Source: Eledone cirrhosa
Lineage: Eukaryota
Direction of reading: 5' to 3'
Length of the DNA: 64,000 nt
Assembly: GCA_964016885.1 (NCBI GenBank)
Contig: OZ024742.1
Span: 330,336,001 to 330,400,000, forward strand
A program made the position numbers and the translations under genes. Positions 29,326 to 62,515 of the stretch are shown piece after piece. How positions within the stretch are numbered: the stretch's first letter is position 1; every line of letters starts with the position of its first letter. The notes beneath the pieces are model-generated. The model saw nothing but the letters and a program-made list of their open reading frames with translations, did not search any database and was not told where the DNA came from.

Positions 29326-32300
29326 CATTCTGAAGAGAGAAGAAACATTTAGATATAATTAGTAATAAAATGTATCATACCTAAACTGTTCCTAAATTCC
29401 TCGACTACGTAGTTTCGTGGCATAAACAAAAACAATATATCAAAGATATAGAGTCCTTGCGAGGTCTGCCGACTTATCAAGAGGATACCTCATTTTACTA
29501 GTCTCAAGAACGCGTCTACACGACGTGAGAAAGAATCCCAAAAGGCGGAGGGGGAGATAGTCACGCGATATAACGGTCGAGAAACAGAGCTAAGCCTCTT
29601 ATAACCACGAAGAAAATACCACGGAGGCGGAGGGGGTATTCATATCGAGGCCGTAGAAGAGGTAGTGAAGAAGGCGAGAAGTATGAGTAATGGAAGCTTT
29701 CCAGTTGTCCCCACACTTCAAAGATTGCTCGACCAGAGGGAGTTATTAATATATTTAGAAACACACAGATACATGCGGACACACACATATATACATGAAT
29801 GCATCCGCACCCAACTGTGAGTTAAGGGTGCCAACTTCACCGATGTTGCTCAATGAATGACTGGGACAGACCAATTCAGTTTGAACCAGACTGAACCAGT
29901 ATCAGAGTTAAAAATACATTATGAAGAGAGAAGAAACATTTAGATATAATTAGTAATAAAATGTATCATACCTAAACTGTTCCTAAATTCCTCGACTACG
30001 TAGTTTCGTGGCATAAACAAAAACAATATATCAAAGATATAGAGTCCTTGCGAGGTCTGCCGACTTATCAAGAGGATACCTCATTTTACTAGTCTCAAGA
30101 ACGCGTCTACACGACGTGAGAAAGAATCCCAAAAGGCGGAGGGGGAGATAGTCACGCGATATAACGGTCGAGAAACAGAGCTAAGCCTCTTATAACCACG
30201 AAGAAAATACCACGGAGGCGGAGGGGGTATTCATATCGAGGCCGTAGAAGAGGTAGTGAAGAAGGCGAGAAGTATGAGTAATGGAAGCTTTCCAGTTGTC
30301 CCCACACTTCAAAGATTGCTCGACCAGAGGGAGTTATTAATATATTTAGAAACACACAGATACATGCGGACACACACATATATACATGAATGCATCCGCA
30401 CCCAACTGTGAGTTAAGGGTGCCAACTTCACCGATGTTGCTCAATGAATGACTGGGACAGACCAATTCAGTTTGAACCAGACTGAACCAGTATCAGAGTT
30501 AAAAATACATTATGAAGAGAGAAGAAACATTTAGATATAATTAGTAATAAAATGTATCATACCTAAACTGTTCCTAAATTCCTCGACTACGTAGTTTCGT
30601 GGCATAAACAAAAACAATATATCAAAGATATAGAGTCCTTGCGAGGTCTGCCGACTTATCAAGAGGATACCTCATTTTACTAGTCTCAAGAACGCGTCTC
30701 GTGGTATTTTCTTCGTGGTTATAAGAGGCTTAGCTCTGTTTCTCGACCGTTATATCGCGTGACTATCTCCCCCTCCGCCTTATGGGATTCTTTCTCACGT
30801 CGTGTAGACGCGTTCTTGAGACTAGTAAAATGAGGTATCCTCTTGATAAGTCGGCAGACCTCGCAAGGACTCTATATCTTTGATATATTGTTTTTGTTTA
30901 TGCCACGAAACTACGTAGTCGAGGAATTTAGGAACAGTTTAGGTATGATACATTTTATTACTAATTATATCTAAATGTTTCTTCTCTCTTCATAATGTAT
31001 TTTTAACTCTGATACTGGTTCAGTCTGGTTCAAACTGAATTGGTCTGTCCCAGTCATTCATTGAGCAACATCGGTGAAGTTGGCACCCTTAACTCACAGT
31101 TGGGTGCGGATGCATTCATGTATATATGTGTGTGTCCGCATGTATCTGTGTGTTTCTAAATATATTAATAACTCCCTCTGGTCGAGCAATCTTTGAAGTG
31201 TGGGGACAACTGGAAAGCTTCCATTACTCATACTTCTCGCCTTCTTCACTACCTCTTCTACGGCCTCGATATCAATACCCCCTCCGCCTCCGTGGTATTT
31301 TCTTCGTGGTTATAAGAGGCTTAGCTCTGTTTCTCGACCGTTATATCGTGTGACTATCTCCCCCTCCGCCTTTTGGGATTCTTTCTCACGTCGTGTAGAC
31401 GCGTTCTTGAGACTAGTAAAATGAGGTATCCTCTTGATAAGTCGGCAGACCTCGCAAGGACTCTATATCTTTGATATATTGTTTTTGTTTATGCCACGAA
31501 ACTACGTAGTCGAGGAATTTAGGAACAGTTTAGGTATGATACATTTTATTACTAATTATATCTAAATGTTTCTTCTCTCTTCATAATGTATTTTTAACTC
31601 TGATACTGGTTCAGTCTGGTTCAAACTGAATTGGTCTGTCCCAGTCATTCATTGAGCAACATCGGTGAAGTTGGCACCCTTAACTCACAGTTGGGTGCGG
31701 ATGCATTCATGTATATATGTGTGTGTCCGCATGTATCTGTGTGTTTCTAAATATATTAATAACTCCCTCTGGTCGAGCAATCTTTGAAGTGTGGGGACAA
31801 CTGGAAAGCTTCCATTACTCATACTTCTCGCCTTCTTCACTACCTCTTCTACGGCCTCGATATGAATACCCCTTCCGCCTCCGTGGTATTTTCTTCGTGG
31901 TTATAAGAGGCTTAGCTCTGTTTCTCGACCGTTATATCGCGTGACTATCTCCCCCTCCGCCTTATGGGATTCTTTCTCACGTCGTGTAGACGCGTTCTTG
32001 AGACTAGTAAAACGAGGTATCCTCTTGATAAGTCGGCAGACCTCGCAAGGACTCTATATCTTTGATATATTGTTTTTGTTTATGCCACGAAACTACGTAG
32101 TCGAGGAATTTAGGAACAGTTTAGGTATGATACATTTTATTACTAATTATATCTAAATGTTTCTTCTCTCTTCATAATGTATTTTTAACTCTGATACTGG
32201 TTCAGTCTGGTTCAAACTGAATTGGTCTGTCCCAGTCATTCATTGAGCAACATCGGTGAAGTTGGCACCCTTAACTCATAGTTGGGTGCGGATGCATTCA

Positions 32301-32341
32301 TGTATATATGTGTGTGTCCGCATGTATCTGTGTGTTTCTAA
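29326..32341. repeat. Palindromic concatemer of a 591-bp HHR-bearing unit (~2.3 copies minus-sense + ~2.8 copies plus-sense)
   Basis: Period 591 (ORF track 29561/30152, 31126/31717); inversion junction ~30699; (TA)n on both sides. Confidence 0.95.
31429..31516 (+). ncRNA. Type I HHR with U3-A8 core variant (family C); also 30838-30925(+), 32020-32107(+), 29398-29485(-), 29989-30076(-), 30580-30667(-)
   Basis: TCCTC-TTGATAA-GTcGGCA...TGCCAC-GAAA-CTACGTAG-TC-GAGGA; 5-bp stem I, palindromic stem III, GUC site. Confidence 0.8.
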
Positions 32342-59408: not shown

Positions 59409-61830
59409 AGAATATGCAACCAGTAACTCAGAGATATAAAGCAGACGGATTTATAATGTCGTTATCGATAAACGATGGGGAGCTACGAAAGATCAGAGCG
59501 AGATAAATTTGTAGATACACATGCGTGATCAAGATGTGCCTAGATAAGGGCTATTGTACAAGAACACAGGCTCTGAAGATTGCACAGGCTCTGAAGAATG
59601 ATTTTCCTAATGTCTCCAGGTATTAAATTACTGCTAATAATTTGAAAGAGCAGCAGACATGCTAAACAAGTACGCGAAACATTCTACGAAATTTGTGGAT
59701 ATTTGTGCTCAGAGTTCGAATATATCCCAGGTCTCCTTTGCCTTTCAGATTTCGGGGCCAATACAAAAAAGTACAAGCCGAGCACTAGAGTTGATTCTAC
59801 TATATATATTAATCACTTCCACGCAACACATACACACTTACTAACACAAATAATCTCTCACATTTTCTCTCTTTCCCTGAACGAGATTGGATGTATTCAG
59901 ACTTGTCAAACGAATTGCATCTGTCATGTTACTACAGTGTTACACTAACTGCAGATATGCATAAAACAAACGACAGAATTCTTCTGTGTGGAAGTTTCAA
60001 TTCACTCTCTCTTTGGAATCCATTTCTGCGCTAGTTATACGACAGGAACCCACGTTAAATCAGACGAATATCGGACAAAATTAATATTATAAGTAGAGAG
60101 CAATAAAGACGCGAAGACCCATGACTGTAGTTTAATAACTGAAATAATGAAAAGTATATATCCATGTAAGATTATATATATATATATATATATATATATA
60201 TATATATATATATATATATATATATATATATATATATATATATATATATATATATATATATATGATAATAAGGGCGCTGCGGAGTTGCAAATGGGTAACA
60301 TATGAAAAAAGTTTGTTCTTCATCAGTGATCTTCCAACTATCATAGGCATTTCATCGCTTCAAAGACCATATACCTCCGGTTGGTGCGAGCAACGGCTAA
60401 AAAAAGTCGTTGGGACACGTAAATAAAGGGGACGCGAGGGTAAACAAACAAAATGGTGAGGCAACAGAAAGTGAGGAAGAAGGAGACAAGTCCCAGATTT
60501 CTATGAATGTAAGTTCGGTGAAATCGTGAACGAGAGAATAAAGACCATCAATATATATATATATATGTGTGTGTATATATATATATATATATATATATAT
60601 ATATATATATATATATATAAATATATATGTATATGTGTGTGTGTGTGTGTGTGTGTGTGTGTATGTATGTATATAAATATATATATAATAAATGAAGAAT
60701 TAGAAATAGAAGCCAAGAATAAACGTCATCAGTTGTCTACTAGCCATCATAGGTATTTATTTGCATTACAGACCATAGTTATTGCATCGCTAGGGCGATA
60801 CAATAACTAAATTAAGTTATTGGGATAAAAAGAGTTGGGTGGAGACAGAGAGACAGCTAAACAAACACGAATGGTGAGGCATCGTAAAGAGAGGAAAACA
60901 TGAGAAAATCAAGTCAATAAATCCTTTTTAACATATATATATGCGTATATATATATATGTATGTATATATATATATATATATATATATATATATATATAT
61001 ATATATATATATATATATATATATATATATATATATATGTATATATATATATATGTATATGTATATATATATATATATATATATATGTATGTACGCACAT
61101 ATGTGTGTATGTGCGCGTATATGTGCGTGCATGTGTGTTTGTGGTTGTTAAAGATATGGTCGACTGAATATAACGTTCAGACTGCATAACAATTATGATG
61201 ATTTAGATATATTAATGTCGGCCTAGAACAATTCAGCATAAAAAACAAGGTAATATCAACGATATACATTTATTTAGATATAGAAAATAGACGAGATATT
61301 AAACGTAAGAATAAAAGTCGCTGACAAATTAATTGACAAAACACAGCCGAAAATACAGAAATGTAAGATTAATAAGATTGTTATAATCATACGATTGAAA
61401 TTGAAATCAAACATTATACCAATTCTGTGGCAATAGGAATACATATTCAAATTTTACAATAATACTTAATATATATATTTCCATATTCGTTATAAACGAA
61501 TGCGTATGATCACAGAAAGAAGAAAAATGATAGCTACATAGAAATTATCAAAAACAAAGCCGAAACATTAAAATATACTTATTTAATATTAACGATTCCT
61601 GCAACTGACTACAAAATATGAAATCAACAAAATGTATATAAAGAAACAATGATGTATTTTCTCAGAAGACAACAGTAATGAGCTAAAAAACAAAATATTA
61701 CTTTGTTACGTTTTATTTCATTTGTCTCATTTGCCCATCGTATTTTCCTATCACATTATACCGGCTTAACACAAAAGGATCTGTCTTTTAATATATATAT
61801 ATATATATATATATATATATATATATATAT

Positions 61831-62515
61831 AAATTGATGAGCAGAAGAAACAAACATTAAACAATCCCTTAAATAAATCAAAAAAATAATTTAAATATCT
61901 ACCTGTTCATAATACTATTCCCGGCGGTTTCCATCCACAAAAGATTGGAAATTCGGAGAATTTCCAACGGAAAGTAGATTTCATCAGATAGCTATTTCCT
62001 TTCTATATATCTCAATGTGTACTTAGTACTCAGTGAGATATTTACCTATTTTTATATATTCTCCAATCTATGTAGAGAAAACAATTCGTGGTTGCTTACT
62101 GCTATTTTTTTAGCAGCCAAGCCATCAACATTTCTGTAATATTCCCGCTTGCTCTAGTGGCCAGGTCACGTATGGGTCACTTTAACGGCTATAACTCTGG
62201 TAGATAGCATTATATTTGCGGACCATGGGACATATGTCCTATAGAAAGGAAATAGCTATCTGATGAAATCTACTTTCCGTTGGAAATTCTCTGAATTTCC
62301 AATCATTTGTGGATGGAAACCGCCGGTAATAGCATTACGAACAGGTAGATATTTAAATTATTTTCTGATTTATTTAAAAGAATGTTTGTTTGTTCTGCTC
62401 ATCAATGTTTATAGTTCTTGTATCTCGAATTAGTACCATAGAACAACAATTGTATTATAGACACCCTATATATATCTATGTGTACTTAGTACTCAGTGAG
62501 ATATTTACCTCATTT
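61831..62515. mobile_element. Fold-back element K (arms 61831-62006 / ~62239-62410) with ~230-bp spacer, between (TA)n tracts
   Basis: Diverged inverted arms; ~32-bp direct repeat at 62016 and 62479. Confidence 0.8.
62255..62333 (+). ncRNA. Type I HHR (family K); mirror 61915-61992(-) has a mutated cleavage triplet
   Basis: GCTAT-CTGATGA-a-ATCTAC..TTGGAAATTC/GAATTTCCAA..GTGGAT-g-GAAA-CCGcCGG-TA-ATAGC. Confidence 0.8.

Follow-up and report, generated by a model that had tools for sequence, protein, structure and literature searches.

Paired fixed 3' ends in head-to-head fold-backs of Penelope-like elements and retrozymes of Eledone cirrhosa: a likely footprint of twin priming

Penelope-like elements (PLEs) are known to leave complex insertions, in which an inverted, 5'-truncated pseudo-long terminal repeat (pLTR) is accompanied by an optional tail (PMC3846280, PMC8557442). 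Self-priming on an antisense template was proposed in PMC3846280, and the origin of the tandem and inverted insertions and of their tails was named an open problem in PMC8557442. Here, we describe a 64,000-nt stretch of the Eledone cirrhosa genome (contig OZ024742.1; referred to below as the window), in which eight fold-backs with hammerhead-like motifs, named A, B and F-K, are built of two head-to-head arms. In each of them one arm ends at one fixed site of the family, S, and the other at a second fixed site, T, and this rule was obeyed by 90 of the 93 classifiable fold-backs found outside the window.

The elements and their layout are of an ordinary, known kind. Like the insertions of endonuclease-positive PLEs (PMC3846280, PMC8557442), they show head-to-head inversion, which is the most frequent arrangement there, a tail on one arm, palindromes at junctions and a hammerhead in the pLTR. 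They differ from those insertions in the length of the tail (45-165 nt versus 30-40 nt), in the counted S+T pairing and in a geometry that speaks against self-priming (PMC3846280). PLEs of the Hydra clade are recognized by RWK and DKT motifs, a CxCx5C linker, CxxC and CxH around E and N, the lack of CCHH, and insertion into (TA)n (PMC8557442). Our families G, H, I and J resemble them in the C-terminal endonuclease, the linker, hammerheads and (TA)n targets, with RWK/RWR and DKT found in H and I, but their parents are new families in this genome, placed by motifs. Metazoan retrozymes lacking long terminal repeats, proposed to be non-autonomous PLE derivatives (PMC7761336; bioRxiv 10.64898/2026.07.22.740005), consist, like our families A, B and K, of tandem monomers without an open reading frame (ORF) and with one type I hammerhead each; the monomers described here are longer (460-590 nt versus about 150-300 nt) and form head-to-head concatemers with two fixed ends. 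According to PMC7761336, no motif points to the element that mobilizes retrozymes. Twin or dual priming of L1 (PMC2837659) is similar in that both target strands prime, inverted arms have their 3' ends outward and junctions show microhomology; in L1, however, such priming occurs as a by-product, its second site varies and the arms do not overlap, whereas in the PLEs studied here both sites are fixed and internal and the arms mostly overlap. Thus, head-to-head inversion, the one-sided tail, junction palindromes, (TA)n targeting by Hydra elements and the PLE origin of retrozymes (including PMC8969392) are already published, while the mechanistic footprint is new and testable: in the literature searched, which did not extend to older subscription papers, we found neither a counted S+T rule, its use to separate models or retrozyme concatemers obeying it, nor a twin-priming model for PLEs.

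Two end points in each family and their pairing

The eight fold-backs were located by self-BLAST of the window and lie between positions 29326 and 62515; the letters F-K, given without coordinates in the original prediction, were mapped onto the six fold-backs that remained beside the two concatemers, A and B. All eight are head-to-head, and their hammerhead-like motifs read in minus sense in the left arm but in plus sense in the right one. This polarity, which had been noted earlier, was confirmed by a strict hammerhead descriptor for 4 motifs, namely those of G and I in either arm, and by reading the others by eye. The arms are unequal in length because one of them bears the tail of the family, and their mutual identity is 90-99.6% in the seven elements measured, reaching 99.6% in A and B.

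Each element was then used as a query against the genome (3.0 Gb, AT-rich), which yielded from 28 (A) to 1835 (F) first-look candidates; the best 28-40 per family were scored, and up to 30 loci per family and 20 longer stretches were fetched. In every family the 3' ends fall at S and T, which are 45-165 nt apart, and the stretch between them is the PLE tail. Among arms of at least 100 nt with a visible end, 246 of 254 (seven families) end at one of the two sites; 3 further arms were cut by a locus edge. In an independent sequencing run, loose (AT)n ends of family A were found exactly at S (31000; 11 records) and at T (31165; 4 records). The two fixed end points, one per arm, are the most informative feature of these insertions, and they were absent from the original prediction.

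The SINEs of the window and its abundance of (TA)n seem cephalopod-like. Since (TA)n runs are abundant throughout the window, the association of element ends with TA needed a background control. A (TA)4 was present within 12 nt past 224 of the 246 S or T ends, against a background of 4-12%, which bears out the earlier claim that unequal arms end at (TA)n. Base-pairing of the primer through the self-complementarity of (TA)n is nevertheless unproven, because the ends overlap the TA run by a few bases only, in a sequence of 66% AT, and priming without homology was observed in vitro (PMC11167929).

Non-random polarity, too, extends beyond the window, where adjacent arms on opposite strands form 90 head-to-head and 5 tail-to-tail pairs. 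All five of the latter have TA at both inner ends and therefore look like separate insertions. Both ends could be classified in 76 of the 90 head-to-head pairs, and 73 of these are S+T, one is S+S and two are T+T (binomial p about 1e-18 versus 50%); in the remaining 14, one end was unclassifiable or cut off. Family I, which is microsatellite-rich, was paired by eye and gave 7/7 S+T pairs (the nested L156, the unclear L158 and one pair 12.5 kb apart were excluded). A ninth family, chosen through Rfam RF00163 independently of the original prediction, gave 10/10; in one further pair, an end missed S by 13 nt, falling short of it. Both sites also occur in arms without a partner (46 S, 25 T), so independent choice would predict about 46% S+T. 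The S arm is the left one in 33 of the 73 pairs and the right one in 40. Such a head-to-head junction was present in 96 of the 170 sampled regions, and retrozyme concatemers obey the rule as well.

That the fold-backs arose as assembly or amplification chimeras might be suspected from the 99.6% identity of the arms in A and B, and from the failure to see the A junction in four runs. This is, however, extremely improbable, as about 100 independent loci have their ends at two sites that are specific to the family, while chimeras would ignore S and T; moreover, arms diverge by up to 10%, and element I carries a later insert in one arm only.

Junction geometry and the mechanism of insertion

In our opinion, these insertions were probably made by twin priming, in which two cut DNA ends are extended on element RNA, one from S and the other from T. 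The mechanism is likely, judged from the footprint left in the sequence. Indeed, the anole PLE protein was shown in vitro to cut and extend both strands, with two internal RNA start sites bounding the tail, and a dimer was predicted (PMC11167929); inverted insertions are not discussed in the main text of that paper. A PLE protein, probably dimeric, would thus cut both strands within (TA)n, and each cut end would prime at its own fixed internal site of the RNA, S or T. Each of the two cDNAs would stop on its own, in many cases where transcription likely starts internally, about 170-210 nt upstream of S, a shared stop there giving short near-symmetric hairpins, and their 3' ends would be joined head-to-head by microhomology-mediated repair. 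Failure of one priming event would leave a single-arm copy, and the PLE machinery would be borrowed by the A, B and K monomers, on multimeric or circular RNA. The template might be one RNA or two sibling RNAs. The priming from both ends and 5'-side joining suggested in the original prediction are retained as the best mechanism, and the involvement of the PLE machinery, also suggested there, is supported.

The geometry of the 73 pairs bears on the published alternative, self-priming or snap-back. In that scheme, one cDNA or antisense RNA would fold back and be copied to give a hairpin; the endonuclease would then resolve it at S in one arm, so that the tail stays on the other, and central deletions at a later time would account for the asymmetry. 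The T arm lies entirely in the tail, with no overlap, in 10 pairs; the S arm is the longer one in 20 and the T arm the longer one in 25, the remaining 18 being near-symmetric (within 30 nt). In the first two classes, which make up 30 of the 73, neither arm fits inside its partner or can have been copied from it, and in ten of them the arms have no sequence in common. Long palindromes are prone to deletion, and asymmetry could have arisen in this way; however, six S-longer pairs have an arm-to-arm mismatch of at most 1%, and no significantly greater age was seen for asymmetric than for symmetric pairs (59 pairs, p 0.15). Near-symmetric junctions, several of which are located on natural short palindromes, agree with snap-back, as do variants shared between arms, which fit copying. 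The tail was ascribed to endonuclease resolution in PMC8557442, and, according to work cited in PMC11167929, recognition by the endonuclease of D. virilis depends on the tail. On the other hand, symmetric junctions cluster where single-arm copies end, so that a shared RNA 5' end suffices to explain the symmetry. S+T pairing together with the 30 non-copy pairs argues against self-priming, which we regard as unlikely, and supports priming by both cut ends.

Microhomology was assessed from BLAST overlaps and a simulated null, which replaced exact-match scoring, confounded by single-nucleotide differences from the reference. An overlap of at least 2 nt was found in 36 of the 54 filler-free junctions, whereas simulation of 120 random joins gave 35 (p 5e-6); the other 19 of the 73 junctions contain filler, partly repeated local sequence. 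The 5' ends form clusters some 170-210 nt upstream of S (about 209 nt in F, 170 nt in G, 191 nt in H and 198 nt in J); in G, H and J, the clusters lie at a stretch of pyrimidines with TCA after it, which resembles an initiator. As the queries started a few bases downstream of the 5' clusters, these are partly selected; the unselected family A has its own cluster, at monomer positions 82-83 in 10 of 22 regions. A hammerhead cut as the stop for cDNA was considered and rejected, as in family A no mapped 5' end falls at position 222. The hammerheads are intact inside the arms, which implies a template that had either escaped cleavage or been religated, as in PMC11167929.

Source variants bear on whether the arms come from one RNA; they differ within pairs in 22 of 263 informative cells, versus 14-26% between loci; at C2:70280500, an identical private change occurs in every unit of both arms. 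Such sharing, above that of random copies, speaks against dual priming on two RNAs, each bound by its own protein, in which an asymmetric complex would force one S and one T and leave the same footprint. Wide overlap of arms in most pairs and the loci L015 and L021 are in favour of that alternative, and dual priming has been postulated for L1 (PMC2837659). Two free RNAs give, however, no obvious reason for 97% S+T, and we consider this explanation distinctly improbable.

Several points weigh against twin priming as formulated here. The effect of shared variants is weak in G and K, and gene conversion between arms could be its source, just as post-insertion central deletions could be the source of asymmetry. 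T arms cross the S region in 63 of the 73 pairs, which on one RNA needs strand displacement, and in L015 and L021 one arm stops at the 5' hotspot of the family and its partner extends beyond, a pattern more readily explained by two RNAs or a circle than by a single linear RNA. In PMC11167929, start sites on the bottom strand were like those on the top strand, and pairing within one insertion was not addressed. Neither an empty allele nor a target-site duplication was seen, and the window A junction, 30699/30700, was not found in the 4 sequencing runs searched. Finally, as the best candidates per family were scored, the counts describe young, query-like copies.

Parent families and the fold-backs of the window

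In all eight elements the motif is type I hammerhead-like, with core, stem II, GAAA, a short or palindromic stem III, UH and stem I. Rfam at its gathering threshold gave no match in the window, the motifs having a long stem II and fitting only the descriptor or the eye; at E up to 1, all of the 150 matches listed, of 263, were low-complexity microRNA matches. Minimum-energy folds of most elements, though not of F, contained stem II and at least part of stem I. The cores are uniform within families, including the non-canonical TTGATAA of A (37 of 38 matches; U3-A8 pair) and CCGAAGA of F (34/34). The U3-A8 pair, instead of C3-G8, persists in relatives of A that are 78-82% identical (L026, L030). 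Catalytic activity is putative for all elements.

F-J are, as read from their sequences, 5'-truncated ends of autonomous PLE families, four of the Hydra clade and one Penelope/Poseidon-like. All five show 5' truncation, an inverted copy and a one-sided tail, and the typical PLE arrangement, with reverse transcriptase (RT) and C-terminal GIY-YIG endonuclease in one ORF upstream of the pLTR and in the same sense, was found. In F, RVT_1 and GIY-YIG exceed the Pfam cut-off in the long copy L212 (G000:C4:30462000-30467000), an autonomous fold-back with about 1.8 kb of RT-endonuclease sequence per arm, at which size S+T still holds. By its motifs, F would be Penelope/Poseidon-like. Long copies of H (L214) and I (L222) contain ORFs of 746 and 714 amino acids, assigned by motifs with no Pfam match, and in G and J, C-terminal endonuclease-type ORF pieces lie upstream of the arm. 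L222 carries RMRWK, SDKT, CSCRKPDEC, CSLC and CPH, which are Hydra-clade motifs, L214 carries RIRWR, SDKT and CNCRDKSKC, and J carries CNCRNTATC; the assignment of G rests on 48% identity to L214 across the C-terminal 127 amino acids. By the motifs of PMC8557442, the four families would thus be placed in the Hydra clade. Partial pLTR tandems occur in H (L214) and I (L219, L222), and the ORF starts just after the internal T site. The view of the fold-backs as a non-autonomous retrozyme system is not supported for F-J, whose long copies encode RT and GIY-YIG-type endonuclease, and element I of the window itself contains a piece of the family ORF. The elements had further been called unrelated, which holds for their DNA only, as related Hydra-type proteins are encoded by long copies of G, H, I and J.

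By their sequence, A and B, and less certainly K, are retrozyme-like tandems of ORF-less monomers with one type I hammerhead-like motif per unit and periods of 591, 496-498 and about 460-480 nt, respectively. No linked PLE ORF was found in 22, 14 and 27 regions of A, B and K (for K, 27 of 1368 candidates), and no autonomous partner was present among the fetched loci, a search that was not genome-wide. A closed 591-nt contig of family A was obtained in two of three contig-type runs, a signal that a genomic tandem gives as well, and words of this family occur in runs of many differently labelled organisms (at least 20 matches, 16 studies), with no RNA run among those listed. Units of an array share one haplotype, and dimers ending at 82-83 together with alternating variants in window A fit rolling circle or genomic read-through.

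Element A consists of a left arm on the minus strand (29323..30699; 2.3 units), whose outer end is S (monomer position 301), and a right arm on the plus strand (30700..32347; 2.8 units), which ends at T (position 466), 165 nt past S. The right-arm core, TTGATAA, is at 30843-30849, with a predicted cut after 30920, and recurs every 591 nt. The same T-to-A variant is present at 30782 and 31964, in units 1 and 3 of this arm, and is missing from unit 2 and from the left arm. In element B, the left arm (36431..40232, minus strand; 7.7 units of 496 nt) ends at S, and the right arm (40228..41506, plus strand; 2.6 units; cores at 40638 and 41136) ends at T, 58 nt past S. Family B is also represented at 27333-27755 by an older copy with a single arm, which ends at T and bears, at the 5' end, a 20-nt filler in duplicate. 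Element K (61826..62523) has S on the left and T on the right, with a 114-nt tail, and cores at 61987 (-) and 62260 (+).

Among the pLTR fold-backs, F (34638..35093), G (47656..48068) and H (49918..50443) have T on the left, with tails of 45, about 90 and 92 nt, respectively, and S on the right. Cores are at 47845 (-) and 47963 (+) in G, and at 50111 (-) and 50337 (+) in H, whose right arm contains a 13-nt unit repeated five times close to the junction. Element I comprises a left arm on the minus strand with a T end (50458..52604), interrupted by unrelated sequence at 51645-52216 and containing the C-terminal endonuclease piece of the family ORF at 52448-52602, and a right arm on the plus strand with an S end (52603..54223; core at 54135). 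Element J (55781..56315; cores at 55905 (-) and 56062 (+)) has S on the left and T on the right, with a 135-nt tail.

Other PLE remnants are present in the window. A degenerate PLE at 43046-45613 has RT fragments and an inverted 3' part, and its hammerhead-bearing end also occurs at 1659-3043, 26287-26611 and 35145-35409. A PLE RT region at 14796-15815 is 47% identical to the F-family protein over 341 amino acids. Hydra-type ORF fragments at 33816-34615 and 49378-49903 directly adjoin elements F and H; PLEs accumulate in one another's TA flanks. A further fold-back, at 8346-9075, has inner ends facing (TA)n runs that flank an 85-nt insert; no hammerhead core was seen in it and its polarity is undefined. 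It may be a miniature inverted-repeat transposable element or a different element.

Implications for PLE and retrozyme integration

We lean slightly towards the broader view that endonuclease-positive PLEs normally integrate by twin priming, in which a dimer sets the two sites of reverse transcription and the tail represents their spacing, and that retrozymes are integrated likewise. If this is true, the inverted pLTR and its one-sided tail, as well as palindromes at junctions and copies with a single arm, would all follow from one rule. The S+T rule speaks against the published self-priming model, connects the in vitro results of PMC11167929 with genomic footprints and provides a sharp prediction for the existing in vitro system. 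Integration of animal retrozymes has so far been argued from co-occurrence and phylogeny; S+T pairing in their concatemers is a direct footprint of the PLE machinery on retrozymes, and PLE proteins would then integrate animal retrozymes through the same two-site signal.

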